Of a stretch of 64,000 nucleotides of DNA, positions 8,021-51,538 are shown one piece after another. Positions within the stretch are counted from its first letter, which is position 1. Each line of letters starts with the position of its first letter. The stretch is from Candidatus Bruticola sp. GTDB taxonomy: Bacteria > Vulcanimicrobiota > Xenobia > Xenobiales > Xenobiaceae. Both the position numbers and the translations under genes were made by a program. The notes beneath the pieces were generated by a model that ran no database searches, was not told the origin of the DNA, and was given only the letters and a program-made list of their open reading frames with translations. The DNA lies in the NCBI GenBank assembly GCA_051874695.1, contig JBJEGC010000012.1, positions 328 through 64,327 of the forward strand. Direction: 5' to 3'.

Positions 8021-8059
8021 AGCGGTTTGCTTTATGTTAAGGTAGACCGCTTTTTTTTT
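8021..8059 (+). terminator. rho-independent terminator
   Basis: Hairpin AGCGGT...ACCGCT followed by T9. Confidence 0.55.
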
Positions 8060-8136
8060 ACTAGTCTGGGTAATATTAGGCTTTTCTGTTAATAATGCAG
8101 GCAGCCTGTTGAGGCCGGGAAGAAAGAGAGCCGTAC

Positions 8137-11883: not shown

Positions 11884-11898
11884 CAAGCTGAGCTGTCT

Positions 11899-12525: not shown

Positions 12526-13162
12526 TCAGCGCGGAGTCACTATCATTGAGTTGTTGATTTGCTGCGCTTTAACGGTAACTTTTTTAGGTTTGGTAGGGCG
12601 ATTAGCTTCGGCGGCAGCTGAAAATTACAAGCATAGCGAAAAAGGAATGAGGGCCATGCGCTCGGCAGCCTTAAGTGCGGAAAACATGAGCTGCGATTTG
12701 CGTTTATGTCAGAGTATTCTATGGCCCAAGGTAAGCTCTGAAAAGTGGCTCCAAGGATATTCTGTGAAAGGTGATAGTCAGGTCGCCTTCAAGTTCATTT
12801 TTAGACAATCTCCTCCGGTAGGCGGTGCGCCATCCATAATCGGTTACCATTGGGATTCGGTCAGTCGGGAACTGACTAAATGTATCTATCGCCCTAATTT
12901 TAATCCGCAGGCGAGCAATTTGAACGACTCCGGACAGATCATTTCTCAAAAAATTTTAGCACGCGATCTGTCAGCTATTTCCATTAATTCGGTAAACTGT
13001 CGTCTGCGCGGAGGAGCACAATTTTTAGAACTGAGCTTAACTGTTTCATTTAATGAACTAGATCGGGGGCTTCGCAAACTAAATAATATTTCAACTCAGC
13101 CTCCTGAACTGTTCAAGAGTATTTATACACAGTTCGAAATCAGGGAGGGGGCGTCTTTATGA
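12485..13162 (+). CDS. type IV pilin-like / T2SS pseudopilin (prepilin N-terminal cleavage/methylation motif)
   Basis: QRG|VTIIELLICCALTVTFLGLVG is a canonical G|xTxxE prepilin leader plus hydrophobic helix. Overlaps the upstream gene. Confidence 0.65.
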   Translation: MLSTINWLRKTKYNQRGVTIIELLICCALTVTFLGLVGRLASAAAENYKHSEKGMRAMRSAALSAENMSCDLRLCQSILWPKVSSEKWLQGYSVKGDSQVAFKFIFRQSPPVGGAPSIIGYHWDSVSRELTKCIYRPNFNPQASNLNDSGQIISQKILARDLSAISINSVNCRLRGGAQFLELSLTVSFNELDRGLRKLNNISTQPPELFKSIYTQFEIREGASL

Positions 13163-20227: not shown

Positions 20228-21244
20228 ATGAGCAAGCGCCGTCATTTTGATGATTACAGTTTTAAGGCAGCGGAGTCTTGGCGCCACCGAAAGGAAGAAG
20301 GCCATAAACACAACGTTCAGCTAGAGGCTTATCGTCATAAAAATCCTAGTGCGGAAGCTCAGCAATGGTGGGACGGTTCGCTGCTATACTCCGATTTGCC
20401 GAACCGTTTTTCTCTTAAAACAAATGCTGATTCGTTAAAAAAAGGACAGTCACCAACTCAGTGCGGCCTTGGAGGGAATGCAGAATCCGGTTCCAATAGT
20501 TGGAAATGCTTAGATCGGGCTGTTACACCTGAAGGTACGGTTATGGAGTTGATGTGCTATGGTGAAGAACTAGCTATTTTTATAGACGGCATAGAATTGA
20601 TGGCCAGTGGACAGCACGGCTCTGAAGAGCTCATGGCTTACTTGTGTGCCTTGTTGCATAACGATTGGCATAATATGAGCAACGGTAAGCTTGATCGATT
20701 GGTTGAACAGGCCTTTTCGGAAAGCTGGCAAGAGGATAAATTAGAGACTAACGATGCCTCATTAAAGGTTTTAATTGGAGGGTTGGGACTTGGTTATACT
20801 TTGAAAGCTGCTCTGAAGGCCTTCCCTAAGTCAAATCGTATTACTGCTGCCGAACTGATGAATTGTGTGGCTGAGTGGAATAGAGGGGTTTTGGGAAAAC
20901 TGGCCGGTTTTCCCTTGCGCGATTCTAGGGCAGACCTGTTTATCGGTGATGTAAGAGAGGCGATATGTTCCCAAAATTGGGACATAATTATGCTCGACGT
21001 AGATAATGGCCCAGAGCCGATTACACAGATGGCTAATCACACTCTGTATAGCGAAACCGGACTGAAAGAAATAGGTGAACACCTTGATACTGGAGGTATT
21101 CTTGCCGTTTGGTCAGTCAACCACGATCGCAACTTTATAGGACGTCTTCAGCACTTAGGATTTACTTGCCGGGCAGTTACGGTGCCTTCTGTATTGGGCA
21201 CGTCTAATTGCGATCGTCACACAATATTTTTAGCTTATCAATAA
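20228..21244 (+). CDS. spermidine synthase-like (PABS-fold) methyltransferase-family protein
   Basis: VLIGGLGLGYTL (glycine-rich loop) and DIIMLDVDNGPEP resemble polyamine aminopropyltransferase motifs. 3-nt gap after mutL suggests co-transcription. Confidence 0.5.
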   Translation: MSKRRHFDDYSFKAAESWRHRKEEGHKHNVQLEAYRHKNPSAEAQQWWDGSLLYSDLPNRFSLKTNADSLKKGQSPTQCGLGGNAESGSNSWKCLDRAVTPEGTVMELMCYGEELAIFIDGIELMASGQHGSEELMAYLCALLHNDWHNMSNGKLDRLVEQAFSESWQEDKLETNDASLKVLIGGLGLGYTLKAALKAFPKSNRITAAELMNCVAEWNRGVLGKLAGFPLRDSRADLFIGDVREAICSQNWDIIMLDVDNGPEPITQMANHTLYSETGLKEIGEHLDTGGILAVWSVNHDRNFIGRLQHLGFTCRAVTVPSVLGTSNCDRHTIFLAYQ

Positions 21245-28848: not shown

Positions 28849-29781
28849 GTGTGCATTTATAAGTTTCGATCGGTAAGACGGTCGCGCTTGGGTATTTTAT
28901 TTAGAATTGCGTTTTTGGGTATTTGCTGGTGTTGGCTGAGTTTGAGTGGAACTTCAGCTGCCCAGAGCCAATCAGAAGGGAAAGCCGTCGAAGCTCATCG
29001 AGCAGCGTCTGCTGTAACTAAGTCCGCTCCTTCTGCCTCTGCGGTTAAGAAAGAGAATCGTCAGGTTTCTGAAGCCTCCTCAGTTAAGCTCAGTCCCAAG
29101 GCCTGTGGCATACGGGCTTATGCTCGCTTGCAGGTGTTAATTGAGTACTACTTTATGGAAAGTGGTCTCTATCCAGTCAGTTTGCAATCTTTAGAACGTA
29201 GTTTTAACACTGGGCTGCCTACTGATGCTCCTAAAGTTATCTTGGGTACCGATCCTCTTTCAGGCAAACCTTTTGTTTATCAGGTAAGCGAAGATCGCCA
29301 CCATTACACTTTGTCTGTACCTGAGCCTGAAAAGTACGGATCGGACTTGCCTACTTTGGAAACTATAGATTGGGGCTGGCTGATGCTGGCTGCCGAAGGC
29401 AAGCGCATTGAGCGTCTTTTATCTGATTGCACCAGAAACATAAATGAGTTGGCTACGGCCTGTGAAATTTACGCTAAAGATCACAATAAAGCTTTTCCTG
29501 CCAAATTGGAATCTTTGCGTCCTCAGTACATGTTCCGCGAACTGCGCTGCCCTGCGTCTTCCAAACCTTATATTTATACTTTCAGACGTGGCGGGTACAC
29601 TATCGAATGTCCGGAACCGCGCCGACATGGTCTGGGGTCCATAAAGTACGATTCTGATAGAGGACTCTTCGTAGGTGGCGTTGAGAGCGTCGGTGCTGAT
29701 AATGCCGAGAAAAAAGCTAATTCAACTGTTATCAATTCTGAAAATAGTGGGGCTCCGGCAGCCAAAACCGAAAAAAAATAA
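28849..29781 (+). CDS. secreted protein with two GspG-like periplasmic repeats
   Basis: Signal peptide FRIAFLGICWCWLSLSGTSAA. Two internal repeats (YPVSLQSLERS...GKPFVYQV...HYTLSVPEPEKYG and FPAKLESLRP...SKPYIYTF...YTIECPEPRRHG) resemble the C-terminal motif of T2SS pseudopilin GspG. Confidence 0.5.
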   Translation: MCIYKFRSVRRSRLGILFRIAFLGICWCWLSLSGTSAAQSQSEGKAVEAHRAASAVTKSAPSASAVKKENRQVSEASSVKLSPKACGIRAYARLQVLIEYYFMESGLYPVSLQSLERSFNTGLPTDAPKVILGTDPLSGKPFVYQVSEDRHHYTLSVPEPEKYGSDLPTLETIDWGWLMLAAEGKRIERLLSDCTRNINELATACEIYAKDHNKAFPAKLESLRPQYMFRELRCPASSKPYIYTFRRGGYTIECPEPRRHGLGSIKYDSDRGLFVGGVESVGADNAEKKANSTVINSENSGAPAAKTEKK

Positions 29782-31859: not shown

Positions 31860-33545
31860 ATGTTGTGTAAAGTTGTGCTGCCTCATGGTATTCAAGAAGT
31901 TTCCAATGATACTTTTGTCTGTGATGTCATTTGTCGTGATCTGGGAATTGACAGCACAGAACAGGCTCTGAAATTTGTACTATGCATGAAGCATCTTCGT
32001 GAATTCGGCTGTGTGGGAGCTCAGGTTGACGGGGAAATTGTCGATTTAAAGTCGCGCATAACTTCCAACTGTACTGTAACTCCTCTCACTCAAAACGATT
32101 ATTTTGGCCGCCACATTATTATGCGCAGCTCGGCGCATTTGCTGTTCTATGCGGCCAAATTGGTTAATCCTGAAGCCGTGCTGGAAATTGGCCAGTCGCT
32201 GCACAGTCAGTTGTTCTTCAGTGTCAAAAATGTCAGCGATATTGAGTCATTCGGCGAAGAAGTCAATAAAAAGTTCGCTTATCTCTGTGCAAAAAATACG
32301 CCTTTTAAAACTAATTCGGTCGCGCCTTCGGCAGCTCTGAGTATGATTGAAGATCCCGACGGCGATCGTCGCCATGTCGTGAATTGCTGGGTCGGTTCCA
32401 GTTTCGGCATTGTTAATATCGGCCATTATACCGATTTAGCTTACGGTCCCTTTGTGCCCGATGCCGGTTTCCTGCGTTCCATTAAGGTAGTTGGCATGGC
32501 AGAAGGTTTGCTTTTGACTCAGGAACCTGTGCAGCTTCCCTCACAAGAACTCAAAGATTTTATGCTCGGGGCCGCTAGGCAAGCCAAAGAGTGGAATAAG
32601 CGCATGAATATCGATACTGTTGGCAAGCTGAACAAGATGATTTTGAGTGGCGAGGGACAGAACTTAGTGCAGGTCAGTGAAACTTTGCATGAGCTACGTA
32701 TCGGCCAGATCGCCCGTGATGTGCTTTCCCGCTCTGGAGTGAAAGTTGTCTTTATTTCCGGACCTTCCAGTTCGGGTAAAACCAGTACTGTGCGCCGTCT
32801 ATCCACCCATTTGCAAGCTATGGGCAGGCGCACTGTCTATGTTGGCCTAGATGATTACTATCTGCCTTGTGAACAGTGCCCGCGTGATGAAAAAGGCGAC
32901 TACGATTTTGAGGCTATAGAAGCCCTTAACTTGCAGCGCATTCAAGACGATCTTCAGTCGTTGGTTGAAGGCAAGGCTACTAGAATTCCTCATTACGATT
33001 TTGTCAGCCAGCGTCCTGGCCCGGCTGAAAATGAGAATGTTGTCCGTTTAGCCGACGATCAAATTTTACTTATAGAGGGTATTCATGGTCTAAATCCGGC
33101 TATAACTGATGCAGTTGACAGAGAGAAACGCTATGCGCTCTTTGTCAGCGCTCTTCCGCAGTTGAACATGGATAAAGCTAACAGGGTACCGACTACTTAT
33201 GCCCGCCTGTTGCGCCGTATTATTAGAGATCGTCGCTACCGAGGCATTTCAGCTGTCAGCACGATTATGCGTTGGCCTAGTGTCCGCCGAGGGGAAAATA
33301 AATATATCTTCCCTTATCAAAGTCGTTCCGATGCTATGTTTAATTCAGCTTTAGCATATGAATTGGCTGTTTTCCGCCATTATGCTTGGCCTTATCTGCT
33401 GGAAGTACCCGATGACAGCCCGGCCTACACTATGGCCAGAGATATGCTGCGCTTTTTAACTATGGTTGTGCCCATGGATTCTGAGTGGGTGCCTAAAAAT
33501 TCTGTTTTGCGCGAGTTTTTGGGAGGCAGCATTTACCAATATTAG
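31860..33545 (+). CDS. fusion of ThrRS-N-like (TGS + second additional domain) and uridine kinase/phosphoribulokinase-family P-loop kinase
   Basis: The N-terminus (...HIIMRSSAHLLFYAAKLVNPEAVLEIGQSLHSQLFF) resembles the ThrRS/AlaRS editing-associated domain. C-terminal P-loop FISGPSSSGKTS with uridine-kinase-like downstream motifs. Confidence 0.65.
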   Translation: MLCKVVLPHGIQEVSNDTFVCDVICRDLGIDSTEQALKFVLCMKHLREFGCVGAQVDGEIVDLKSRITSNCTVTPLTQNDYFGRHIIMRSSAHLLFYAAKLVNPEAVLEIGQSLHSQLFFSVKNVSDIESFGEEVNKKFAYLCAKNTPFKTNSVAPSAALSMIEDPDGDRRHVVNCWVGSSFGIVNIGHYTDLAYGPFVPDAGFLRSIKVVGMAEGLLLTQEPVQLPSQELKDFMLGAARQAKEWNKRMNIDTVGKLNKMILSGEGQNLVQVSETLHELRIGQIARDVLSRSGVKVVFISGPSSSGKTSTVRRLSTHLQAMGRRTVYVGLDDYYLPCEQCPRDEKGDYDFEAIEALNLQRIQDDLQSLVEGKATRIPHYDFVSQRPGPAENENVVRLADDQILLIEGIHGLNPAITDAVDREKRYALFVSALPQLNMDKANRVPTTYARLLRRIIRDRRYRGISAVSTIMRWPSVRRGENKYIFPYQSRSDAMFNSALAYELAVFRHYAWPYLLEVPDDSPAYTMARDMLRFLTMVVPMDSEWVPKNSVLREFLGGSIYQY

Positions 33546-33777
33546 CTTTGGCATATATTAGCTGAACATAGGGGCCCGGCCGGTGTTATTCGGTAGCGTA
33601 TGGGCTCCTTTTTTCTCGATAATATCGAGTTTATGTAGGTAAAATTATATTTAAGTAATGTTAACATGCTCAGTTGGAGTTTATTTATGGGGCACATGCC
33701 GTTGATTTATGCTAAACTTAACAGGAAGCTGCTTTATAACAGCAGATAGAAAAAAATATATATGGGGGGAAAATAAA

Positions 33778-34764
33778 ATGGGTAGCGTTGCCTGTGCTTC
33801 ATCTGACAGTAATTGTGCTTACGTTCGTAGCCCTTTGACGACTCGTCCGACATGTTGTTCCAATTCTCAATTAGTTGATAGTAATTCCTTATTTGACGGT
33901 ACTACCGATTGTTATGCTGTTTCTGAGGGCAGAGTGGCTATCTTGACAGCAGAATTTTCTCAGGGCGGTGCTAGTCAATCTTCGGCCCATACGTGGCAGA
34001 TTAATAATTGCACCGATAATTGCGCCACTCTGTTTTTTGCATCTAATGTTTTAAATGATGCTGAGGCGGAGGCTCTCTCTAACGAGCAGCTGCAGGCCGA
34101 ATACGGACGCCATCAGAAAATATCCTATCAGTCGCAAACTGAGGAACAAAAATGCTTATGTCAATCGGCAGCTTTAACTCAAAGTCAAGGCGAAGCTGTA
34201 CGGATGAATGAGCTGGCCCTTAACCTTAAACAGAGTGCTGTTCAAATGAAACAATGCGCTCTAACTCAGGTAACCGTCGGAACTGCTTTATACGCTTCAG
34301 GAGTCGCCTTGGAAGCTGCTGGGAAAGCTCTTTCTGCTTGTCCTTTTTCCAAAGCGGCCGGTTTGGCTTTAATAACTAAAGGAAAGGCCATGAAGCAGCA
34401 AGGAGCAGAAATACAGCAGGCAGGAAAAAAACTTAACTTAGGGGCCAAAAATCTGCTGAATTCCGGTTTTAAGTTAGCTTCTTCTGCTTCTAGGCGGTTA
34501 AAAAAAATAGCCGATTCTTGGCAAAAATTAGGTAGTTTGTACCGTCAGGTTAAAGAAATAGGCAGTTCTGCTGAAAAAAGCATGAACTGTGTCGTCAAAG
34601 AAGGGCAGAAGCGCGGCTTAAATATGATCATTTTGCATCCAGAGCGTACTTTTATCTATAATTATGGATCTTGTGCTCCGGTTAAGAACCTGTCTCACTC
34701 CAGCACCCGGTTCGGTTTTTCTTCAGATGAGACAATATTGCCCTCAATAAGTAGCATAAAATAG
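33778..34764 (+). CDS. hypothetical Cys-rich protein with alpha-helical Ala/Lys/Gln-rich C-terminal half
   Basis: ATG preceded by a GGGGGG RBS. 10 Cys in the first 150 aa. No signal peptide or TM helix. No recognisable domain. Confidence 0.45.
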   Translation: MGSVACASSDSNCAYVRSPLTTRPTCCSNSQLVDSNSLFDGTTDCYAVSEGRVAILTAEFSQGGASQSSAHTWQINNCTDNCATLFFASNVLNDAEAEALSNEQLQAEYGRHQKISYQSQTEEQKCLCQSAALTQSQGEAVRMNELALNLKQSAVQMKQCALTQVTVGTALYASGVALEAAGKALSACPFSKAAGLALITKGKAMKQQGAEIQQAGKKLNLGAKNLLNSGFKLASSASRRLKKIADSWQKLGSLYRQVKEIGSSAEKSMNCVVKEGQKRGLNMIILHPERTFIYNYGSCAPVKNLSHSSTRFGFSSDETILPSISSIK

Positions 34765-34920: not shown

Positions 34921-36135
34921 ATGGCTAAGTTTCCTCTTCTAGACGACAATTTCCCTCGTATAATTCCCTCTTTCAGACAGTTGGTGAAGATAATGTCTGA
35001 ATGTGTTGACGGTGGAGTGAGTTTAGGCTGCACCGCTTTTGAATTCCGCCAGTGTGATATTGCTCTTGGGACGGCTTTGGGCAATTTTATGGAAGTTTTG
35101 CGGTTGAAGGAACTTCCTCCTGAGAGAAATGAAGCAATTAATGAGATAGTGCTTCTTTTTACTCGCATGAGTTCGGAAATGGCTAAATTAGAGACTGCAT
35201 TGAGCATGGATGCTACGGCGGCCGCTGTTAATTGTGTAGCTAACATATACGAACACTTAAAAGACTTAGAAGAATTAAATATGGACCTGAAGGCTGCTGT
35301 AGGTGATAGCCATATTTATTCTGAAGTACCGGTTGTTGACAGTTTGTTGCGTGCGGGCAACTTTGTGCTGGAAACTAACGGCGCAGAGTGGGATGCTTTG
35401 AGTGCCCGTCTGGAAGCACTTATACCTCAGTGGAATGAAATAGTTTCCGGCAGCGGTCTGCCGGAGGAATTGATTCGCCACGACCATGCTTTGGAACGCC
35501 TGGTTGAAGTGCTTAACGAAAGAAATTTGGAGGCGCTTCCTGATGTTTTGGAAGAGGTCAAGTCTAGTGGTGAAGATTTGGTCAATTTTCAGGACAGCCA
35601 GATAGACGTCGAAAATACTTCCGTAGTGCTCTGCCCTTATTGCGGCAAGCCCATGTTGGGAGGAAGTAAAAAGTGCTTCTCTTGTGGAGCTAGGATGCCC
35701 GAAGAGTTTGAACGGGGCGGTTCTTCCGACAAAGAAACAGATAAGGGCGAGGCCATCAGTGGAATGCCTGAGTATGTACAACGCATTTTCGATGTTGCCC
35801 AAGAACTTCCCAACAATCCTAAAATGATACGTCCTTTCAAGAGAGCTGTGGGTGAGCTGCGCCGTCGTGTTGCCGATGCCAGTTCGCGCATCAATAAAAT
35901 GTCTTCTTCTAAGTTAAAAACTACTCCGGAAGAACGTGAAAATATTGACGGTATTATCGACCTCTCCAATACTTGTATAGACAATTTCTCCAAGGCAGTA
36001 GAACTGTTAGAGGAATTTGAACCTCCTGTTGATCGATTCCATATGCAGTGCGCCTTAGAGGTTATGGTTGAAGCTGTAAAGGAGATGCGCGGCATAGGTG
36101 GCTTGGCCCAAAAATATCGCAATTCGAAGAAATAA
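34921..36135 (+). CDS. hypothetical protein, paralog A of tandem pair with central zinc ribbon
   Basis: Aligns along its full length with the next gene: FPLLDDNFPRIIPSFRQLV / LPKLDDSFPKLIPHLRSFV, NLEALPDVLEEV / NLEELPAALESF, CPYCG...CFSCG / CPKCG...CPKCG. No signal peptide or TM helix. Confidence 0.6.
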   Translation: MAKFPLLDDNFPRIIPSFRQLVKIMSECVDGGVSLGCTAFEFRQCDIALGTALGNFMEVLRLKELPPERNEAINEIVLLFTRMSSEMAKLETALSMDATAAAVNCVANIYEHLKDLEELNMDLKAAVGDSHIYSEVPVVDSLLRAGNFVLETNGAEWDALSARLEALIPQWNEIVSGSGLPEELIRHDHALERLVEVLNERNLEALPDVLEEVKSSGEDLVNFQDSQIDVENTSVVLCPYCGKPMLGGSKKCFSCGARMPEEFERGGSSDKETDKGEAISGMPEYVQRIFDVAQELPNNPKMIRPFKRAVGELRRRVADASSRINKMSSSKLKTTPEERENIDGIIDLSNTCIDNFSKAVELLEEFEPPVDRFHMQCALEVMVEAVKEMRGIGGLAQKYRNSKK

Positions 36136-36187
36136 TCAATTTTTCCAATATTAAGTTCGTACGACAAGACAATCCTTTGGAGGTCCC

Positions 36188-37384
36188 ATGCTAGATACGC
36201 TGCCTAAGCTGGATGATTCTTTCCCCAAATTAATACCTCATTTGCGCTCTTTCGTGAGCGGTTTAGAACATTGTATCGCTAATAAAGAACCTTTGCTCCA
36301 GCTGCGTGAGGAACTGCACCAGTGTGATGTGGTTATGTCCGCTTTTATACTGGCCTTCAAATACAGTGTACGCGGTTACGACTATAACGAAGAAGAATTG
36401 CCCCATATCGCCCAGGTTTATGCCGATTTTGAAGGAACAGCTGGCGTACTGTCATCCCTTATTTGCGATTTAAAGAGTGAAGATGCTGAAGGGGCGGTGC
36501 GTGACGTCAACGCCTTGGTGGAACAGCTTAAAGAAACCGAAAAGAGTTTGGCCAAGCTGGAAGAACTGAAAAAAGCCAAGACAAAAATGTCTGAGTTTGT
36601 CGGTATAGACAGTGTATTGAAAGCTGGCTTGGCCGTAGCTGAGGGGCGCCGTGAGTGGGACATGTTGGAAAATTGCTTGGATTCTCTCCGTCCGGCCTTT
36701 GAACGTTTAGTGGCCTGCAATTCCCTTCCCGACCATATAGAAGATTACTGTGAAGCTCTTGATGATCTGTTCAAAATTTGTGAACAGCAAAATTTAGAGG
36801 AACTTCCTGCTGCTTTGGAATCGTTTAAAGGCGCCAGCGAAATAATGATTGCCAAATATAATGAGGTTAAAGCCAGTAAACAAGCTAACGACAGCTCGCG
36901 CAGCTGGAATTGCCCCAAGTGTGGAGTTGACCTGGGAGAGTGGGATAAGCGTTGTCCTAAGTGCGGCTTGCGTCTGCCTGATCGCTCTGTCGTAGAACAG
37001 AATTTGAATGAATGTTGTAATTGCACAGATTTACCAGGTTGTGTGCAGATTATATTTGACAGTATAAATGGTCTTCGCGATGGCGGTGATTGTTGGAGGG
37101 CTTTCTCGGAAGGCTTGAGCGAGTATGCGGCTTTTGTAGAAGACTTAAAGTGTAAGTACGCTTCTTTGCCGGAAAGCGCCTTCAATAGTTCTTCTTCTGC
37201 AGGTGAGGCTTTAATTTTGTCCCGTGAAGCTGTTGAAGAAGGTTTAACTAAGCTTGAAAACGCCTATTACGTGTGTGAGCATATGCAGAATGGCGGAGAA
37301 GTTACCGATGAAGAACTGGATGCCGCTTTGGAAAATATGGTTGAAGGAGTAGAACAGACTCGTCAAATAACTAGTATGGTCTAG
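36188..37384 (+). CDS. hypothetical protein, paralog B of tandem pair with central zinc ribbon
   Basis: Same architecture as 34921-36135, at about 25-30% identity. The WNCPKCGVDLGEWDKRCPKCGLRLP ribbon lies between two alpha-helical domains. Confidence 0.6.
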   Translation: MLDTLPKLDDSFPKLIPHLRSFVSGLEHCIANKEPLLQLREELHQCDVVMSAFILAFKYSVRGYDYNEEELPHIAQVYADFEGTAGVLSSLICDLKSEDAEGAVRDVNALVEQLKETEKSLAKLEELKKAKTKMSEFVGIDSVLKAGLAVAEGRREWDMLENCLDSLRPAFERLVACNSLPDHIEDYCEALDDLFKICEQQNLEELPAALESFKGASEIMIAKYNEVKASKQANDSSRSWNCPKCGVDLGEWDKRCPKCGLRLPDRSVVEQNLNECCNCTDLPGCVQIIFDSINGLRDGGDCWRAFSEGLSEYAAFVEDLKCKYASLPESAFNSSSSAGEALILSREAVEEGLTKLENAYYVCEHMQNGGEVTDEELDAALENMVEGVEQTRQITSMV

Positions 37385-37559: not shown

Positions 37560-38579
37560 ATGAACGCTCTAACGAACGCTTCCTCCATGTCCGGTATGGC
37601 CAACATGGTTGGCCAAGATCTAAAGAATTCTCAGCTAATGTATTCTGGTATGGCCAATACCGATATTTCCGCTACTTCCGTTTTCGGTGGTGGTCAGGGC
37701 CTGATGGGTGTGTCCCAGGAACTGATCGATACCCAGATGAAGAGCCTTGAAGGGGCTGGCGACGTTGGCAAAACAATTGCTGCCGGTTTGAACTCCATTT
37801 ACTCTGGTGGCAGCTTTGAAGACTTCTTGCAGGCCACTATCGGGAGTATGGACATTAATCCTACTGTTGATAACGAGATTACTCAGGGAGCGACCGATAT
37901 GCTCGCTAAGTATCTTAAAACTTACTTCCCCGGTATGAGCGATGCCACCATTAAAGCTATGTGCAACTCTATGGTGGCTCAGTACGGCGACGTAGCCCAG
38001 GCTATGGATCTGAGCTCTTTGGCTTCCAGCGTAATCGGCTCTTCCGGTTTAAGCGCCAGCAGCTTAGGTGAGAGCGCTAGCAGTTCTAGCAGTGTAGGCA
38101 ACAATGGCAACTATGGCGCCAACAAAGGTGTAAGCGGTTTGCTGTCTGATGCCAGCTCCATGGTTGGTATGACTGAACAGTCTAATGCTTCTTCCATTAA
38201 CGCTATCACTAAGAAGAGCGGTATCAATTGTCAGACTACTCCGTGGTGTGCTGCCTGGGCTATGAACATGCTCAAAGATCACGGTGTGCTCGATACTTCT
38301 TCCTGCTCCAACGTTAACTATTGTCCGACTATTGTTAACTGGGCCAAGAAAGAAGACATCTGGGCTGGTCGTGGCTCCTATACTCCTCAACCCGGCGATG
38401 CCATTCTCTTTGACTGGCAAGGCGACGGTACTTCCGATCATATCGGTATTGTAGAGAAGGTTGCCAACGGTAAGGTTTACACCATTGAAGGTAACTCTTC
38501 CGACTCCGTGGCTAGGAGAAGCTACAGCCTTAATAGCTCCAAGGTAATGGGCTACATTAACTGCGCCGCTCAGAAGTAA
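37560..38579 (+). CDS. CHAP-domain peptidoglycan hydrolase/amidase-like protein with long low-complexity N-terminal region
   Basis: The C-terminal ...TPWCAAWAMNML...PQPGDAILFDW...SDHIGIVEKV...YTIEGNSSD has the Cys...His arrangement of CHAP domains. The N-terminal 220 aa are Ser/Gly/Met-rich with no signal peptide. AAAGGAGAGG RBS. Confidence 0.7.
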   Translation: MNALTNASSMSGMANMVGQDLKNSQLMYSGMANTDISATSVFGGGQGLMGVSQELIDTQMKSLEGAGDVGKTIAAGLNSIYSGGSFEDFLQATIGSMDINPTVDNEITQGATDMLAKYLKTYFPGMSDATIKAMCNSMVAQYGDVAQAMDLSSLASSVIGSSGLSASSLGESASSSSSVGNNGNYGANKGVSGLLSDASSMVGMTEQSNASSINAITKKSGINCQTTPWCAAWAMNMLKDHGVLDTSSCSNVNYCPTIVNWAKKEDIWAGRGSYTPQPGDAILFDWQGDGTSDHIGIVEKVANGKVYTIEGNSSDSVARRSYSLNSSKVMGYINCAAQK

Positions 38580-42473: not shown

Positions 42474-44288
42474 TCAGGACTGCGAGGCAGAGCGCACCTC
42501 AAACTCAAGACGCCATTTGGGATGGCCGTCTTGGCAGCACCATACCTCTAGAGTGCCCACTTCCGTAACGTGAGTTTCCAGGGTAACAGGAATCACCTTA
42601 CCGACTTCACCTACTTCGGCAGGTAAGGTAATCTGCAGAGGAGGCAGTTCTTCTATATCATCTTCCCAATCATCTATAAGATCGCCAATTTGATCTTGCT
42701 GTCGGCACGTAGAAGCTAAGAAGCGAAACTCTACCGGTTCCCCTACTACTAAACCGAAACTCCTACCTGGCAAACGTTCACGGGAATCTTCTTCCATACC
42801 GAATGGGGCTGCGCAGAGAGCTTTTATAGGAGGAATAAGGCCTGGCACAGCGGGCATGGAAGTTTCTATACCAAGGTAATAGGAGCGATTTGTTCCTGCC
42901 TTTATTCTTATGCCTGCTCCTTGACTGGCCAGCCCGCTGCGCACGGCACCGCGAGCTACGGCTAAATCATAATCGGCTCCTTCCAGCTCTTTTACTGGCG
43001 GTGCTCCTACAGAGGTCAGCCAGCTGTTTAATGTTTCTGTTAAACGACGGCGCAGGACAGGAGCTTTAAGGACGCCTCCGTTGAATAAAATTGCTGTAGG
43101 TGCAAAAAAAGGCAAGGAGTTGTCTTCAGGTTTATTGACGGTTAGGAAGCGAGCCAAGTGCTTGGTAATGGCCGGATTGGATTCAAACGGAAGGCCTAAT
43201 TCGCGCAAGCCACTTTGACGGGAGCGAATGGCCTGATCTTCTATTGAACATTTAGGGAAGAAACCGTCTACTATAAGTTGCTCGGTAAGTTGCTTGGAAA
43301 GAGGAAGCGTTACAGAGGAGGCAATCAGGCTGCTGCCACGCCCGGGAATGGTTACATTCCATTCTTCTTCTCCATCTTCTTGTAAGAGTTGTTCTTTGGC
43401 AGTGCGACAGGCATGAGTGAGGACTTGCATCTGCCAGCTATCTAATTTAGTTTTTCGCTCAGTTTTGAGTTTTTGCTGTAAGCAGACGGCTAAAGTAAGA
43501 TCCATGTTGTCGCCGCCTAATAAAATATGGTCGCCTACCGCGGAGCGTTCCAAAGATAAATTTCCGTCTTGATCAGTTACACTTATGAGACTGAAGTCAG
43601 TGGTGCCCCCTCCAATATCACAAACTAAAATTTTGTCGCCTACGGAAACTTGGGAACGCCAATCTTTTTCGCTGTTGCCTAGCCAGGCATAGAAAGCAGC
43701 TTGAGGTTCTTCCAATAAAGTGAGATTTGTGAGGCCTGCTTTATGAGCAGCCTGGACTGTCAGCTCTCTGGCAATAGTATCAAAAGAGGCAGGAACGGTA
43801 AGTACAATTTGTTGTTCGGCAAGCGGGGAATTCGGATGTTCAAAGTCCCAAGCAGAGCGCAAATGCTCCAAGTATCTAGCCGAAGCGTCTATGGGAGAAA
43901 TGTGTTCTACTTCATCGGGGGCATTCCAGGGCAGGATGGGGGCATTGCGGTCAGCTTGTTCACTAGAAAGCCACGATTTCGCTGAAGAGACAACTCTATG
44001 AGGAACTTTCACCCCCTGTTCACGGGCCATGTAGCCCACAACGCTGTTAGCCTGTTTGTTCCAAGGGAGTTCCAAGCTTCTGGGAGGCAGTTCATGGGCT
44101 CCGGGAAAATATAAAAAAGAAGGCAGAGTTTTGCGAGGTTCAACCGTGGCCGGATAAGTTAGCTGGGAAACGGCAAAATGGTGTATAGGTGGAGTCTCTT
44201 TGCGTGTTCTCTGTTCTGATGAAACAGCATCCGGATCGGACCAGGCCACGGCGCAGTTAGTCGTTCCTAAGTCTATACCTATAATCAT
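42474..44288 (-). CDS. divergent Hsp70/actin-fold ATPase family protein
   Basis: Phosphate-1 motif MIIGIDLGTTNCAVAW, VCDIGGGTTDFSLI, and LFNGGVLKAPVLR. Not canonical DnaK: it lacks the DnaK substrate-binding-domain signatures. Confidence 0.7.
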   Translation of the reverse strand: MIIGIDLGTTNCAVAWSDPDAVSSEQRTRKETPPIHHFAVSQLTYPATVEPRKTLPSFLYFPGAHELPPRSLELPWNKQANSVVGYMAREQGVKVPHRVVSSAKSWLSSEQADRNAPILPWNAPDEVEHISPIDASARYLEHLRSAWDFEHPNSPLAEQQIVLTVPASFDTIARELTVQAAHKAGLTNLTLLEEPQAAFYAWLGNSEKDWRSQVSVGDKILVCDIGGGTTDFSLISVTDQDGNLSLERSAVGDHILLGGDNMDLTLAVCLQQKLKTERKTKLDSWQMQVLTHACRTAKEQLLQEDGEEEWNVTIPGRGSSLIASSVTLPLSKQLTEQLIVDGFFPKCSIEDQAIRSRQSGLRELGLPFESNPAITKHLARFLTVNKPEDNSLPFFAPTAILFNGGVLKAPVLRRRLTETLNSWLTSVGAPPVKELEGADYDLAVARGAVRSGLASQGAGIRIKAGTNRSYYLGIETSMPAVPGLIPPIKALCAAPFGMEEDSRERLPGRSFGLVVGEPVEFRFLASTCRQQDQIGDLIDDWEDDIEELPPLQITLPAEVGEVGKVIPVTLETHVTEVGTLEVWCCQDGHPKWRLEFEVRSASQS

Positions 44289-44337: not shown

Positions 44338-44841
44338 CTAAAGCTCTACTTCGGCAGGGCAAATAATATCCGAATCGTCATCGGTACTTTGAGGAAGATT
44401 AGCTTGGGCAAGGCGCCAACCTTGGTGGCGCAAGATACCTTTAAATGGTGGGTTGCCCTCAACTTTACCGACTAAGCGGATGCTGCTCGGATCGAAGCCT
44501 TCTTCTATTGTAATATCCGAACCTTCTTCCTCAGAGCGCACCGGTTCGAGTGTAAGATACTCTTTAAGCGCTTTGCGGCACCCTTTATATACGGTCGACT
44601 TAACGACTGCACCTATTTGCTCTTCAGGAACGTTCTCCAAGTCTTCTTGCAAAAAGTCGATGAGACGTCCTTCGCGCTGCAGCAAAGCCAGAATGCCAAC
44701 GGCACCAGGGTACAACGAGGGAGTACTGGCAGAAGATACGGGCTGATCTGCTTTGTCTTCTAACAATAGGGATAATTTTTCAGCGAAGGCACCATTGAAC
44801 AGAGCTTTAAAAAAAGCCTTGAAAGCTGTAATTATACGCAT
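44338..44841 (-). CDS. hypothetical protein (possible DUF2760-type partner of the Hsp70-like gene)
   Basis: 167 aa with an amphipathic N-terminus. Lies directly downstream of the Hsp70-like gene. The family assignment is from memory of this gene pairing. Confidence 0.35.
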   Translation of the reverse strand: MRIITAFKAFFKALFNGAFAEKLSLLLEDKADQPVSSASTPSLYPGAVGILALLQREGRLIDFLQEDLENVPEEQIGAVVKSTVYKGCRKALKEYLTLEPVRSEEEGSDITIEEGFDPSSIRLVGKVEGNPPFKGILRHQGWRLAQANLPQSTDDDSDIICPAEVEL

Positions 44842-47196: not shown

Positions 47197-48912
47197 TCAC
47201 TGACTAATGAGCTTGCGCAAATCGCCATACTGTCTGATTTTAAACCAAGTCAGTTCTCCGTTAAGTAGGTATCGCCAGGCGACTGCGCCCATTTTTAGGA
47301 AGTTAGCTGCCCAAGCTAGTATAAACGGGACATGCCAGTGAAGCTTAAAATACTCACGGTGTTTGAGCAAAAAGCGGATAAAGCTTTTAGGAACGAATGA
47401 TTTGGAGACTAGGCAATAAACAGCCAAGTAAAAGCGATCTTCAGGGCTGCGCGGCCAGTCCATGGAGACGCGGAACTGCTTCCAAGCTTTATTGTTCAGC
47501 CCTTCCACTTGATTGGCATTAATTTTCCCTTCAGCCAAAAGGCGTTTGGTAATAGCTGTGCCGGGGAAATAATTTAGAGAGTAGAAATAAATGTCGTAGG
47601 GGCGTTCCAGAGCTAACAAAAACTGAGCTGTTTCTAGCTTCATTTCTTCCGAAGCCCAAGGGTTGTCAATAATAAGATCGTAAACCGCATTGATATTTAG
47701 TTCTTTATTGAATTTAGAAAAAGCCAAAATATTGTTGTTACCCGGCACTCTGTTATGTACGGCTAAGCTTTCTTGAGGAGAGCCACTCTCAATGCCAGTT
47801 TGTAGGCGTACTAACCCGGCTTTCTTGAGTTTCTCCAAGAAAGGACGTTTCAGCATGGGGGGAATAAGCATGCATTCGAAGGGAAGGTGAATGCGCTGCG
47901 GATACTTGGTGCAGAATTCATCTACCCATGCGGCCGGAGCAGCAAAAGCTGTATCATCATCTATTTTTACTCTGGCCAGGCGAGGAAAACGATCTTTTAT
48001 ATATTCAAGTTCACCCAATATGTGCTCAACTGAGCGCAAGCGGTAAAACTTTTGCTTATCTGCGGCAAATTTTTCGCGCAAAATAGATACATAACAGTAA
48101 GAGCAATTGTAGGGACAGCCTCTAGAACAATAAATGCGGTATTCTGCCGTACGTTTCCAAGGCTCTTCATTATGAATAGTTTTATCTTCAATATAAAATT
48201 TATTAAAGTCGTCTATGTCGGGATAGGGAAGCTCATCCAAATTGGCAATAAGCGGGCGCATATCATTTCTGAAAATTTGCCCGTTGATCTTGGCCCAAAT
48301 ATTGGGAATATTGCCGGTAAACTGATGATTGTATAGCGCTTCGCACAAGTCGATTAGGGGAGCTTCTCCTTCTCCAAGGCAGATGTAGTCTGCATAATCG
48401 AGAGCCCCTTCAGGTACAGCCGTAACATGAATCCCTCCCCAACAAATTGGTAAGTTTGGAAAACGTTCTTTTAAACGTACAGTGAGCTTTTCTGCCATGG
48501 AAAGCAGGCTGGAAATAAAACCTATACCTATAAAATTTGCTTTTTTCTCATCAATAATTTTGAAAACTAACTCTAGCTCTTCGGCGGAAGGCATCTCTAA
48601 TTTGTTGTTGACCCAGTCTCTCAGGAATATCAAATTCACTTCAAAACCTGCGCGGCGCAGAGCTGCCGATAAATAACGCAGGCCCGAATTTTCCACGCTG
48701 TACATGGCTATGAGGGCTACGCTAAATTTTTTGGGCTGACCGTACCAGCCTGATTTGGGAGCCCAAGGAGCTTGAGGATTTTGGACTGATGAACCTACGG
48801 CAGGATTAAAAACTGCTTCAGCAGATCCTGGAGAGGCTCCAGGAACTGAGGCAATTTGCTCTTTGCACTCATTCTGTATATTCTGTATAGTTTGGATAGA
48901 TGAATCTAACAT
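47197..48912 (-). CDS. B12-binding-domain radical SAM protein (class B)
   Basis: Cobalamin-binding region (...IGIGFISSLL...PICWGGIHVTAVPE...YICLGEGE), then YCSRGCPYNCSYC (CxxxCxxC). Confidence 0.8.
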   Translation of the reverse strand: MLDSSIQTIQNIQNECKEQIASVPGASPGSAEAVFNPAVGSSVQNPQAPWAPKSGWYGQPKKFSVALIAMYSVENSGLRYLSAALRRAGFEVNLIFLRDWVNNKLEMPSAEELELVFKIIDEKKANFIGIGFISSLLSMAEKLTVRLKERFPNLPICWGGIHVTAVPEGALDYADYICLGEGEAPLIDLCEALYNHQFTGNIPNIWAKINGQIFRNDMRPLIANLDELPYPDIDDFNKFYIEDKTIHNEEPWKRTAEYRIYCSRGCPYNCSYCYVSILREKFAADKQKFYRLRSVEHILGELEYIKDRFPRLARVKIDDDTAFAAPAAWVDEFCTKYPQRIHLPFECMLIPPMLKRPFLEKLKKAGLVRLQTGIESGSPQESLAVHNRVPGNNNILAFSKFNKELNINAVYDLIIDNPWASEEMKLETAQFLLALERPYDIYFYSLNYFPGTAITKRLLAEGKINANQVEGLNNKAWKQFRVSMDWPRSPEDRFYLAVYCLVSKSFVPKSFIRFLLKHREYFKLHWHVPFILAWAANFLKMGAVAWRYLLNGELTWFKIRQYGDLRKLISQ

Positions 48913-50084
48913 AGTGGAGGAACCTTTTTTATTATTTCTGCTAATTCTGAAGGTGAGGGTAGTTGCTTATCCGGAAAACGACGGAAGTTTAGGTTGAGGG
49001 CATTTATAAAAGATGAGCTGTTATGCATAGTTAAGGCTATTTCCCACCAGCAAGGACGGAAACAAGCTTGACAGTTGCGGCGTAGTTCCTTTATTTTGGC
49101 CAGATTGCGTTGGTGTTTATACCAGCTTATAAAGTTGTCTTCATATACTTTGGGGTGATCTTCAGGAGATTCGTCTTGAAAATGGCACATGGAACAGCGT
49201 CCGTCCGGGCTGACAGAGAAGCTGAGAGTGCCCGTTTGGCAGTCGATCCCAGTTCCCCAAAAGTTCGCATTGAGTGAAGCTGATTTCTCTGGGGAAGTCT
49301 CTTGACATCCGCACTTTAAGAAATTAATCATAGCCTTCAGATAAGGCATAGAGTTAAAAATAGGAGAATGGGACTGCTTTTTCAGCCTGCACAGATATTC
49401 TAACAGACAATCCAGTTTGGCTTCATCTTGGCTGGCAAAACGCATATCTTCCGAATCGGGGGAGCAGCTGAGAATTTCACCCTGATAGCTGTGCTTTTCT
49501 AAAGGCACCAAAGATAGATAAAAATTGTAAGCTTTGGCAATGGCCACCATTTGGGGAATGTCATTTATGTTGCGTGCTGATACCACGCAGTTTAATATGC
49601 CGGTACCTGATCTTTTCTGTATATAAGAAGACCAGAAACGGACTCGCTCAATAATTTTCGCCCAAATTTCCGGCTTATGACAAATTTCACTCTGCACTTG
49701 AGGATTAGGCGTATCTAACGATATAGATATGTGGCGCAGACCTGCAGCGGCTACCGCCTCATGTAGATCCGGAGAACCTGCTAGAGCATTAGTAAGAACT
49801 CGGGTTTCAATACCGTTATTGATAAAAGCAGCGACAATTTGCGGTAAGTCTGAGCGCAAAAAAGGCTCCCCGCCGCCTAATGATATGGCCGTTGTGCCCA
49901 GTTGACGGAAGTGGCTGGCCGCAGTCTCGATTTGTTCTAAACTGAGCTCCTCATCTTTGTTGCCTTTTTTCCATAAACCGCACATGGCGCAAGTTAAATT
50001 GCATCGATGAGTTAGACCAAAGTGTACGTAAATAGGCGTATTACCACCGATTATAGCTTTCAGAACCGGCCAAGGGTTTCTCAT
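48906..50084 (-). CDS. radical SAM protein with SPASM/twitch-like Cys-rich C-terminal domain
   Basis: HRCNLTCAMC (CxxxCxxC) and GGGEPFL. The C-terminal half has 9 or more Cys (CGCQ...CQTG...CSMCH...CQACFRPC). 7-nt overlap with the downstream gene. Confidence 0.75.
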   Translation of the reverse strand: MRNPWPVLKAIIGGNTPIYVHFGLTHRCNLTCAMCGLWKKGNKDEELSLEQIETAASHFRQLGTTAISLGGGEPFLRSDLPQIVAAFINNGIETRVLTNALAGSPDLHEAVAAAGLRHISISLDTPNPQVQSEICHKPEIWAKIIERVRFWSSYIQKRSGTGILNCVVSARNINDIPQMVAIAKAYNFYLSLVPLEKHSYQGEILSCSPDSEDMRFASQDEAKLDCLLEYLCRLKKQSHSPIFNSMPYLKAMINFLKCGCQETSPEKSASLNANFWGTGIDCQTGTLSFSVSPDGRCSMCHFQDESPEDHPKVYEDNFISWYKHQRNLAKIKELRRNCQACFRPCWWEIALTMHNSSSFINALNLNFRRFPDKQLPSPSELAEIIKKVPPLC

Positions 50085-51538
50085 AATTTTAAAATCTCCC
50101 AGCCGGCTTTTAATTTGCGGGCCATGTCGTGGAAATTTTTCAGCTCCAGCAGTTTGCGGAACATCTGTTTGGGACGCAGGTAGAAGCGTTTAAAGGCCTG
50201 ATCGCACAGAGAGCTTAATTCAGCAGCGCTGAAAAATTCCGTCCAGACTTGCGGCTTAAAGTTAGGATACGGATTGGCTAGGAATTGATCCCAATGATTA
50301 GGATCGAGTATGCCCTTCTCAATGCCCTGATTATAAACTAACGTGTTGGGATAGGGAGTCAAAATACCGAAGAGAGCGTAGTCCGGATCTAGAGAAATGG
50401 CAAAATCGACAGTTTTGTTTATTTCATCTAGAGAACTATCGTGGGGGCAGCCTATCATAAAGTAGCATACGGTGGTTAAGCCTTCGTCGGTAAGCATATT
50501 AAAAGCTTGGCGCACTTTCGCTGTAGTTAAATTTTTGTTGAGCGCTTTCATTCCCTCGTCGGTGCCAGATTCTACTCCGATATGCACCCGAGTACATCCT
50601 GCACTGCGCATGGCCTTCACTGTTTCTGGAGTGATACAGTTGGCTCTGGCTCTGATATTCCAGTTAACTTTTATGGAACGCTTTTTGATCTCGCTGCATA
50701 TGGCTAAAACGCGATCTTGGCGCACATTGAAAGTGTCGTCTACAATATATACTTCGTGGACTCCCAGCTTAGCACACTCAGCCAACTCGTCCACTACTGA
50801 TTCCGCACTGCGCCATCTCCAGGTTGTGCGCCCGGGGGTATTGCAGAATGAGCATTTGTAGGGACAGCCGCGGCTGGTTAACAACGAAGTGGCGACAGCT
50901 TCACTGCCTAGTACATAGCTGTATTTGCGATAATCGAGAATTTCACGCCGAGGAAAAGGCAAACTATCTAAATCGGCTATGGGGGGACGGGTTGGGGTTT
51001 GTACAATTTGCTGTTGTTCGTTTTTAAAATATATACCGTTTATTTTTTGCAGATTGTTGGCCAAAGTTTGGCTGTCGTACCCGGATTCTTCATTCCAGGC
51101 TGCTGTATGAGCGGCTACAACTTCTGTAAAAGCTTCTTCTCCTTCAAAAGGAATGCAGCCGTCTACGCAGCTGTATTTCATACACTGAGCGGGAAAATCA
51201 GAAACGTGAGGACCACCCCAAAATATTCTTACTCTGCTTCCCAGCTCTTCTTTGGCTATCTGGGAAGTTTGCATCATATCGATTAAATCGTGAGTATGTC
51301 CGGTTATACCTACAACTTGAGGTCGGTAATCAGCTATGATTTTGCGCAGGTGAGTGCTGTGAAGGTGGTCGGCCAGGCAATCGACTATGCGCACTTCCGA
51401 CTGAGAATATTTATGCAGATGAGCCTCTAGATACATTAATCCCAAAGGCGGTATAGTGTTTGTTTCAGCGTTGACTGTGGTAGGGACTTCTGAGGATATG
51501 CTGTTGTCGCGCGGCGGGTTAATTAAAAGTATCTTCAT
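50081..51538 (-). CDS. B12-binding-domain radical SAM protein (class B)
   Basis: MKILLINPP B12-domain start, then SRGCPYKCSFCNTP. 4-nt overlap with the downstream gene. Confidence 0.8.
   Translation of the reverse strand: MKILLINPPRDNSISSEVPTTVNAETNTIPPLGLMYLEAHLHKYSQSEVRIVDCLADHLHSTHLRKIIADYRPQVVGITGHTHDLIDMMQTSQIAKEELGSRVRIFWGGPHVSDFPAQCMKYSCVDGCIPFEGEEAFTEVVAAHTAAWNEESGYDSQTLANNLQKINGIYFKNEQQQIVQTPTRPPIADLDSLPFPRREILDYRKYSYVLGSEAVATSLLTSRGCPYKCSFCNTPGRTTWRWRSAESVVDELAECAKLGVHEVYIVDDTFNVRQDRVLAICSEIKKRSIKVNWNIRARANCITPETVKAMRSAGCTRVHIGVESGTDEGMKALNKNLTTAKVRQAFNMLTDEGLTTVCYFMIGCPHDSSLDEINKTVDFAISLDPDYALFGILTPYPNTLVYNQGIEKGILDPNHWDQFLANPYPNFKPQVWTEFFSAAELSSLCDQAFKRFYLRPKQMFRKLLELKNFHDMARKLKAGWEILKL

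Follow-up and report, generated by a model that had tools for sequence, protein, structure and literature searches.

Putative zinc-ribbon proteins with three four-helix bundles, and the signal-less papain-like hydrolases encoded beside them, in Candidatus Bruticola and related bacteria

Peptidoglycan amidases normally require a signal peptide, or else a dedicated secretion machine with its adaptors. Here we describe two adjacent genes, A and B, of Candidatus Bruticola, a member of the class Xenobia of the phylum Vulcanimicrobiota (formerly Eremiobacterota). They lie at positions 34,921 to 37,384 of a 64,000-nucleotide stretch of one contig (JBJEGC010000012.1, assembly GCA_051874695.1), which we call the window. 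Their products belong to a family of helical proteins with a putative zinc ribbon, and genes of this family tend to lie next to genes for papain-like amidases that have no export signal. The family, its repeat unit and this neighbourhood rule are undescribed in every library that we searched.

Several described systems resemble this arrangement in part. The adaptors of type VI secretion systems (T6SS), of the DUF4123 (Tap/Tec), DUF1795 (Eag) and DUF2169 kinds, are likewise cytoplasmic partners encoded beside signal-less papain-like amidases, and they too are matched to an N-terminal delivery region that stays the same across varying catalytic domains. The likeness is one of analogy only: neither sequence nor fold relates A and B to these adaptors, Pfam shows no match to DUF4123, DUF1795 or DUF2169, no T6SS components were found among the scanned genes of the window, and no periplasmic immunity gene lies beside the hydrolases here. 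The chaperones of the twin-arginine translocation (Tat) pathway, known as redox enzyme maturation proteins (REMPs; TorD, DmsD and NarJ), are all-alpha cytoplasmic proteins that are encoded beside their client and bind its N-terminal leader before export. The same logic of chaperone and leader is what we propose for A and B, but REMPs are of another fold and family, with no zinc ribbon and no internal triplication, and the putative clients here lack a twin-arginine motif. The CHAP hydrolase Sle1 has a normal signal peptide. In Staphylococcus aureus it is served by CxaR, a ClpXP adaptor that has been described as TPR-like and as confined to Staphylococcaceae; CxaR resembles our proposal in being a helical-repeat cytoplasmic protein that binds a CHAP wall hydrolase and controls its level before export (PMC12443321). 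However, we detected no homology between CxaR and A or B, and no Clp genes adjoin the pair. Four-helix-bundle peptide binders such as FAT, the GIT1 C-terminal domain, the talin rod and the vinculin tail hold amphipathic helices in grooves and offer a structural analogy only. A and B show neither the sequence or fold match to YopN/TyeA/MxiC X-bundles nor the type III secretion context of the gatekeepers YopN and MxiC, and no homology to Rsd or to the HxxxCxxC motif of ZAS anti-sigma factors.

The gene pair and its protein family

The features of the pair are listed here; helices are those of AlphaFold2 (AF2) models.

34921..36135, + strand: paralog A, 404 aa; open reading frame (ORF) with the N-terminal motif, three bundle repeats and a four-cysteine (C4) ribbon between repeats 2 and 3
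34960..35313, + strand: A repeat 1 (residues ~14-131); helices 16-31, 35-62, 67-95, 99-130
35320..35616, + strand: A repeat 2 (residues ~134-232); helices 137-151, 157-175, 182-200, 206-229
35632..35694, + strand: A putative zinc ribbon CPYCG-x9-CFSCG (residues 238-258); cysteines invariant family-wide
35764..36120, + strand: A repeat 3 (residues ~282-400); helices 284-295, 300-333, 336-364, 372-403
36179..36183, + strand: GGAGG ribosome-binding site of B, read from the sequence, 5 nt before the ATG of B
36188..37384, + strand: paralog B, 398 aa; ORF with the same architecture as A
36236..36577, + strand: B repeat 1 (residues ~17-130); helices 17-31, 36-62, 71-96, 100-130
36599..36892, + strand: B repeat 2 (residues ~138-235); helices 138-151, 157-175, 182-200, 206-235
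36911..36973, + strand: B putative zinc ribbon CPKCG-x9-CPKCG (residues 242-262); cysteines invariant
37037..37378, + strand: B repeat 3 (residues ~284-397); helices 284-297, 303-326, 346-367, 374-391

An earlier note on this DNA, made from its letters alone, had drawn both ORFs at exactly these positions and described their products as paralogs that align end to end. The BLASTP match between A and B bears this out, covering the full length of both proteins (406 columns, 25% identity, E = 6e-32). A is a 100% match to ACI38Q_03365, a hypothetical protein of a Candidatus Bruticola sp. metagenome-assembled genome (MAG), and B is identical to the hypothetical protein ACI38Q_03370 of the same MAG. 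Because the spacer between the genes is only 52 nt, GGAGG precedes the ATG of B, and no terminator-like site was found between them, A and B are most simply, and more likely, read as one operon. The note had also called the intergenic regions of this block AT-rich and promoter-like, for which we find no support: the GC content of the 33-39 kb interval (0.41-0.47) is inside the range of the window, and sigma-70-like sites are not enriched (6 observed, compared with 7.8 +/- 2.9 in shuffled sequences).

The motifs that the note had picked out recur in the orthologs. Among 18 A/B orthologs (9 A-type and 9 B-type), the N-terminal motif (F/L)P.LDD.FP..IP has P5, F11, P12 and P16 invariant and D8/D9 at least 90% conserved, and the NLE(A/E)LP motif, at residues 202-212 in both proteins, has L206 and L210 invariant. 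In all, 36 columns are invariant in this set, including P5, F11, P12, P16, C28, C45-D46, S134-E135 and the four cysteines of the ribbon. As the note had said, neither protein has a transmembrane (TM) helix or signal peptide (the highest Kyte-Doolittle hydropathy over 19 residues is 1.00 for A and 1.12 for B).

A and B are each an internal triplication of a four-helix bundle of about 115 residues. The AF2 models (mean predicted local distance difference test score 77 for A and 81.6 for B) consist of three up-down four-helix bundles, the second and third of which are separated by the ribbon and by a disordered linker; the predicted template modelling scores are low, so the relative placement of the domains is unreliable. 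When the bundle segments of the family alignment are compared profile to profile in hhalign, all three match each other: repeat 1 aligns with repeat 2 with a probability of 97.7% (E = 1.6e-12) and with repeat 3 with one of 95.5% (E = 1.6e-8), and repeat 2 aligns with repeat 3 with one of 98.6% (E = 1.1e-15), whereas nine controls with reversed sequences fail, reaching at most 54% (E >= 1.3e-4). Repeat 2 of A opens with the family-wide S134-E-x-P motif and includes the sequence NLEALPDVLEE; the NLE..LP..LE motif is the repeat-2 copy of an element that recurs in repeat 3.

The central CPxCG-x9-CxxCG motif, another feature of the earlier description, is present in both proteins, and its four cysteines are invariant in the A/B orthologs and in a 70-sequence alignment of the whole family. 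They are the only invariant residues in the family alignment, in which S134 and P260 are at least 90% conserved. Neither protein reaches the gathering cut-off of 25 bits for Zn_Ribbon_1 (PF13240), the scores being 20.0 bits for A (E = 5.7e-4) and 19.3 bits for B (E = 9.9e-4), and in the AF2 model of A the ribbon consists of short strands within a low-confidence part. The ortholog P0014 carries a precomputed PF13240 match. Because the four cysteines are invariant, we think that the motif is likely to be a zinc ribbon although its score is below the Pfam cut-off. The Zn_Ribbon_1 and DZR (PF12773) models match residues 238-258 of A and 242-260 of B, but the ribbon makes up only about 5% of each protein and the helical repeats are not covered by these models.

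With cysteines as the sole universally invariant residues, and with many ribbons of this type occurring in ribosomal and transcription proteins, one could suppose that the ribbon binds DNA or RNA and that the family controls the hydrolase genes next to it. We regard such a nucleic-acid-binding regulator as very unlikely. Neither a helix-turn-helix nor another DNA-binding domain is present, and the alignment has no basic patch around the ribbon; a triplicated bundle of 400 aa is unlike the known small ribbon regulators; and the matches of the ribbon are generic, as exemplified by the PDB entry 9SFA, in which a helix and ribbon belong to a protein that binds cyclic nucleotides.

The note's designation of A and B as members of an unknown family holds, since we found nothing above threshold for either protein in Pfam, NCBIfam, PHROGs, PADLOC or PDB sequences, and we found no publication on the family. 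All that single-sequence and profile searches turned up was sub-threshold noise from the ribbon or from coiled coils (Rad50, SMC, the leucine-rich repeats of IpaH, and designed coiled coils), and we rejected these as assignments to a known family. We likewise rejected 9SFA, titled 'putative regulatory protein' (E = 1.7e-4), which is a cNMP-binding protein of Bdellovibrio that has only the helix and the ribbon in common with A and B.

Word-indexed protein searches reached only close relatives, and a profile of 70 sequences added few members. An exhaustive HMMER search of 1.84 billion cluster representatives returned 118 proteins at E <= 1e-10, but about half of the 150 best matches are unrelated multi-ribbon proteins that match at the ribbon only. 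The remaining matches, about 75 in number, are 380-460 aa long and match the profile as a single stretch (about residues 17-395), with a single central C..C-x10-C..C; they form one BLASTP-connected component, and no curated family covers them. Independent members were detected at E-values from 1e-108 to 1e-10. A and B show the same full-length single-stretch match, length and central motif, scoring 2.8e-118 and 6.5e-104 against the 70-sequence family hidden Markov model (HMM), although both are in its seed. The wider family thus comprises at least about 75 clusters at 50% identity, mostly single-copy. Its phylum-level range is drawn from only two records that carry a name, Bruticola and 'Vulcanimicrobiota bacterium'; the only distant member with an organism name comes from a Vulcanimicrobiota MAG. 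In a neighbour-joining tree the A and B clades are sisters, with the single-copy proteins P0026, P0028, P0030, P0033 and P0037 as outgroup and other members further out, which indicates that A and B are products of a Xenobia-specific duplication inside the wider family. The same tree places the two members at locus L031 as a second, independent duplication.

The tandem arrangement is stable. In a scan of one genome per GTDB species we found 11 loci, all of them in gut or rumen MAGs, and by tblastn A is followed by B in all 11 as well as in six metagenome loci. Across these 17 loci the identity to the window is 38-95% for A and 28-85% for B, so B evolves faster. Neither of the findings that the note had named as speaking against it, a known family for both proteins or a pairing that is not conserved in any related genome, was made. 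At most loci the order of genes is also kept, with dnaG, rpoD, a DEAD helicase gene and a uridine-kinase-like gene, from outside inwards, on one side of the pair, and a heparinase II/III-like gene, DegT, an Hsp70-like gene, DUF2760 and Sua5 on the other. At the most divergent loci, L020 and L021 (A 38% and B 32% identical to the window), A and B are still adjacent but all the flanking genes are different, the order being TPR protein, polyprenyl synthase, A, B, GAF-GGDEF protein and Mfd.

This stability bears on the idea that the genes are the remnant of a phage lysis cassette, a defence system or another mobile element. The CHAP domains and the PHROG endolysin matches of the neighbouring gene would fit such an origin, as would a MmeI-type restriction-modification gene inserted nearby in L001-L003. 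A and B themselves, however, have no match in PHROG, PADLOC, BFVD, or phage or plasmid records (the PADLOC scan for defence and immunity models gave nothing better than E = 0.005 and no accepted stretches), their composition is not anomalous, and their chromosomal synteny is stable across species. We consider this explanation to be effectively refuted.

The record of locus L014 (CAAGRW010000158.1) is titled 'Candidatus Riflebacteria bacterium', a label that is probably wrong: its A is 90% identical to the A of the window, and its flanking genes are 76-89% identical to those of the window and stand in the same order as in Bruticola/UBP9 MAGs.

Signal-less hydrolases beside the family

The gene that follows the pair in the window, and a segment of its product that other hydrolases share, are as follows.

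37560..38579, + strand: signal-less CHAP amidase, 339 aa (PF05257, 4.7e-13), the proposed client or partner
37863..38012, + strand: shared non-catalytic module of the Xenobia hydrolases (CHAP residues 102-151, AKYLKTYFPGMSD), found by tblastn

The CHAP gene begins 175 nt after B, and the signal-less hydrolase that the earlier note described is there. Its product scores 49.9 bits for PF05257 (cut-off 26), with C41 and H105 of the domain alignment invariant; the CHAP domain occupies residues 226-312, and the N-terminal half is rich in Met, Gly and Ser. It has no TM helix and only one Lys or Arg in its first 30 residues. The window therefore has a signal-less papain-like hydrolase gene with the shared N-terminal module directly beside the pair.

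The same association recurs across the family. We sorted the loci into 15 independent lineages, between which the family proteins share less than about 50% identity, and found a clear Met-rich (hydrolase) gene adjacent to the family gene in 10 of them, with one to three papain-like amidases per locus. A functional link between the family and the neighbouring hydrolase, which the note had suggested, gains support from this count, and more of it than a single genome could give. The CHAP gene follows B in the window, in L011-L017 and in L034, and also in L025, where A and B are only 41% and 34% identical to those of the window and the CHAP protein is 52% identical over 231 residues. Elsewhere the arrangement and the enzyme change. 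At L008/L009 and L026/L027 the product of the gene directly upstream has MMVMMQMMQMMQMMQMMMGQMG and, after it, a Tae3-like domain with invariant Cys and His. At L010, from Vulcanimicrobiota, the upstream gene has a Met/Gly/Gln/Pro-rich stretch and then an Amidase_6-like sequence, 'NNCADFVSSC...PGDVW...GHTELV'. At L022 a divergent gene, truncated by the end of the contig, has a Met/Gln-rich stretch and the beginning of an NlpC/P60-like domain, and at L023 and L030 the adjacent contig-truncated ORFs have Met/Gly-rich N-termini. L036/L037 have one family member followed by three genes on the same strand, all with Met/Gly-rich N-termini, for two CHAP proteins (1.7e-12 and 3e-12) and one NlpC/P60 protein (9e-20). 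At L031 there are two family members, and each stands divergent to a hydrolase gene of its own, for a CHAP protein in one case and a Peptidase_C39_2 protein in the other. The L031 CHAP protein is 53% identical to the CHAP domain of the window (E = 2e-57), whereas identity to A is only about 20% in the neighbouring family proteins; measured by identity, the hydrolases are much better conserved than their family partners.

What stays constant among these hydrolases is the non-catalytic N-terminal module, while the catalytic domain varies between CHAP, NlpC/P60, C39_2, Tae3-like and Amidase_6-like. The module is Met/Gln/Gly-rich in most lineages and takes the form of a 'YLKTYFPGMS' segment in Xenobia. 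The two L031 hydrolases are nearly alike over their first 50 residues, both starting with '...MAQLMQM(I/M)QLMQLMGAFANQGQ.G.CGCGH'. In Xenobia the CHAP and Tae3-like hydrolases have a segment of about 50 residues in common: in tblastn the second, Tae3-like hydrolase of L033 matches residues 102-151 of the window CHAP protein at 48% identity and the corresponding stretch in other CHAP genes at 74-80%. This module is conserved in the L025 CHAP protein too. The N-termini of the hydrolases are not Sec or Tat signals, because they have few Lys or Arg residues (0-2 in the first 30, with the exception of 5 when the L037 NlpC/P60 gene is read as its longest ORF) and no segment above the TM hydropathy threshold.

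Two checks concern the specificity of the association. Among 4177 stop-to-stop ORF segments from 32 loci and the window, none in which Met makes up at least 27% of a 30-residue stretch is more than 120 nt away from a family gene. In a reciprocal metagenome scan with an alignment of the CHAP domain we found 11 loci of this CHAP subfamily and 69 generic CHAP loci; family genes lie beside three of the six subfamily loci that have usable flanks and beside none of the 69 generic controls. The comparative-genomic signal for an association between the family and these hydrolases is solid and surprising.

Some genomes of the Bruticola group have a second hydrolase, of the Tae3-like type, between the CHAP gene and the heparinase-like gene (L012 11963-12904, L014 11972-12907, L033 1419-2354 and L034 5640-6575). 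L015 retains a 57-residue remnant of it (11878-12048), and the window does not have it, the CHAP gene ending at 38579 and the heparinase-like ORF at 38696. This distribution suggests that client genes are still being gained and lost. Identity between the second hydrolase and those at L008 and L026 is 45-51%. Its best PDB match, 4HZ9, is not significant (E = 0.13), but its invariant Cys and His align on C23 and H81, the catalytic dyad of the T6SS amidase Tae3 (bioRxiv 10.1101/2024.06.29.601107).

At L001 (12579-13175; also L002, L003 and L018, with A 68% identical to the window) B is followed by a gene for a 198-aa Met/Gly/Ser-rich protein with no hydrolase domain, which may be a client without its catalytic domain or a different type of partner; its similarity to the N-terminus of the window CHAP protein is not significant. 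The B-type gene of L004, L005 and L019 (for example L004 11263-12453) has no adjacent hydrolase, and at these loci B is 28% and A 62% identical to the window; in lineages that do bear hydrolases the ratio of B to A identity is, anecdotally, about 0.8-0.9. The high divergence of B may reflect relaxed or shifted constraint after loss of a client.

Possible roles of A and B

We favour, at somewhat short of an even chance, the reading that A and B are a cytoplasmic partner of the adaptor or chaperone type, probably acting together, that recognizes the N-terminal module shared by the hydrolases. Its logic is that both the partner and the module are constant while the catalytic domain varies. Under this reading, the helical bundles would bind the module helix-in-groove, as other four-helix-bundle adaptors do with amphipathic peptides; and the family protein, as their dedicated adaptor or chaperone, would hold, escort or gate the hydrolases until these left the cytoplasm by a non-classical route. 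In Xenobia the duplicated proteins A and B are presumably co-transcribed and would probably act jointly, plausibly as a heterodimer. This is the best-supported function that we can infer: a dedicated cytoplasmic partner of signal-less hydrolases, built on a fold unrelated to known adaptors.

One alternative is a cytoplasmic inhibitor. A and B would then block the amidases inside the cell that makes them, as an antitoxin does, without escorting them. The hydrolases are made in the cytoplasm, as they have no signal peptide; their genes lie tightly against family genes and their domains include ones that resemble CHAP and the T6SS effector Tae3; and a glutamine-deamidase-type gene beside a Met-rich CHAP gene at L039 adds the flavour of a toxin array. 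Known immunity proteins track the catalytic domain of the toxin. Here, by contrast, one family accompanies at least four catalytic domains and it is the N-terminal module that is constant, which argues for the logic of an adaptor or chaperone. In addition, peptidoglycan is not cytoplasmic, so it is hard to see what a cytoplasmic inhibitor of wall amidases would be for; the genes are passed on vertically within a syntenic housekeeping neighbourhood and are neither polymorphic nor mobile; and they persist where no hydrolase adjoins them. An inhibitor or immunity-like partner is, in our view, rather improbable. The earlier note's suggestion that A and B form an effector/immunity pair is not supported: they are paralogs of each other, with no enzymatic or toxin domain and no phage, plasmid or defence match, and they are inherited vertically in that housekeeping neighbourhood. 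Its other suggestion of a sensor pair found no support either.

Several observations weigh against the adaptor or chaperone reading. In two of the 15 lineages (L001-L003/L018 and L028/L029) the neighbour is Met/Gly-rich but has no hydrolase domain, and in three others (L004-L006/L019, L020/L021 and L007) no Met-rich or hydrolase gene is adjacent; conversely, the 4-5 kb around each of three Met-rich CHAP genes (L039-L041) contains no family member. Several of the distant hydrolase assignments are below threshold (CHAP, E = 4.6e-3; Amidase_6, E = 0.022; Tae3, E = 0.13), and the Met content of the N-terminus of the window CHAP protein falls below the 20% threshold of the Met scan. No export machinery is encoded near the pair, the window having only a gene for a T2SS-F/pilus platform protein 20 kb away, and export of the hydrolases is assumed solely from where such amidases normally act. 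Nor does this reading account for the invariant zinc ribbon. The earlier note had envisaged a scaffold for the neighbouring hydrolase; its link to the hydrolase stands, but an obligatory scaffold for this particular CHAP protein does not, because CHAP is missing beside the pair in several Xenobia lineages.

A and B could instead be a scaffold or regulator that is independent of the hydrolases, such as an organizer of cell division or of the envelope, or an Rsd-like binder of sigma factors. In that case the family and hydrolase genes would be neighbours because of co-regulation in wall remodelling rather than because their products bind each other directly. We judge this to be unlikely. A more far-reaching version of the adaptor or chaperone reading is that the Met/Gln/Gly-rich module and its Xenobia variant constitute a new targeting signal, independent of Sec and Tat, for the delivery of wall hydrolases in Vulcanimicrobiota, and that its cytoplasmic receptor is the triplicated-bundle zinc-ribbon protein. 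This extension is unlikely. Each of the three bundles could dock one client, and L037 has one receptor gene and three client genes; in gut Xenobia the receptor would have been duplicated into an A/B heteromer. If true, it would amount to a new pathway of protein export or autolysin control in a barely cultured phylum.

In either form, CHAP, NlpC/P60, C39-like and Tae3-like enzymes without an export signal are tied genomically to one undescribed family of helical, putative zinc-ribbon proteins. If the link is physical, it defines how wall hydrolases are handled in the almost uncultured Vulcanimicrobiota/Eremiobacterota, including the gut Xenobia of humans, primates and ruminants, and it would give a testable pair of receptor and signal, along with a protein family and a repeat unit that are new to the databases. 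Should the mechanism be another one, the family, the triplication and the neighbourhood rule are still concrete, reusable annotation for genes now called 'hypothetical'.

Neighbouring genes in the window and at other loci

Upstream of A in the window is a Cys-rich gene.

33709..34764, + strand: Cys-rich orphan, 351 aa; no family match; maximum hydropathy 1.33

This is the orphan that the earlier note had described beside A. Only its middle region (residues 115-306) is conserved in L011-L018; there is a weak match in L001-L003, and it is absent by tblastn from L004-L006 and L019-L021. It is an accessory neighbour, probably outside the core module. At L001-L003 a gene of the MmeI restriction-modification type and one or two unknown ORFs (6170-8576) lie between the uridine-kinase-like gene and A, so the region directly upstream of A is a variable insertion spot, which in the window houses the Cys-rich orphan. 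The uridine-kinase/PRK-like gene itself (31860-33545, + strand) is kept beside the A-B pair in most Xenobia; in the window it encodes 561 aa, with an N-terminal extension of about 290 residues and a faint TGS-like match.

Some distant members of the family have other neighbours. In one related group, paralogs of PF03692 (CxxCxxCC, putatively Zn/Fe-chelating) flank the module of hydrolase and family member (L008 4754-7038 and 9267-10268; L026 2743-3873 and 6347-7375) and occur also at L007 (2066-3076). The downstream copy is convergent and overlaps the 3' end of the member by about 30 nt, and two T2SSE ATPase genes stand just upstream, an arrangement that was not seen in L010, L031 or Xenobia. 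As PF03692 genes recur only in this group (L007, L008 and L026), we rejected them as family-wide partners, and we did the same with the neighbours of the member at L010, which are unrelated. At L028 a gene for a Nif11-type leader peptide (3683-3946) and an ORF for a 114-aa Gly/Met/Tyr-rich, glycine-zipper-like protein (4507-4851) lie upstream of the member P0112, which is followed by a 470-aa multi-ribbon coiled-coil protein; we rejected this downstream 'DZR' protein as a family member, since it has no match to the family HMM. At L039, which has no family member, a Gln_deamidase_2 gene (PF18626, 3.5e-24; 3603-4463) lies directly upstream of the CHAP gene with the Met-rich N-terminus, which hints that some loci are arrays of papain-like effectors.

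Further along the window, an atypical Hsp70-like gene (42474-44288, - strand; weak HSP70/MreB matches) and a DUF2760 gene (44338-44841, - strand) form a pair that is syntenic in the Xenobia loci L001-L005. An ORF of 1031 aa (4892-7987, + strand) has no Pfam match at E <= 1e-5, and the ORFs at 13159-14424, 15482-16531, 20228-21244 and 28849-29781 are also without a Pfam match. Three consecutive radical-SAM genes (47197-51538, - strand), two of them with B12-binding domains, lie beside genes for a DegT-type aminotransferase and an amine oxidase, and may be a cluster for the modification of sugars or lipids.

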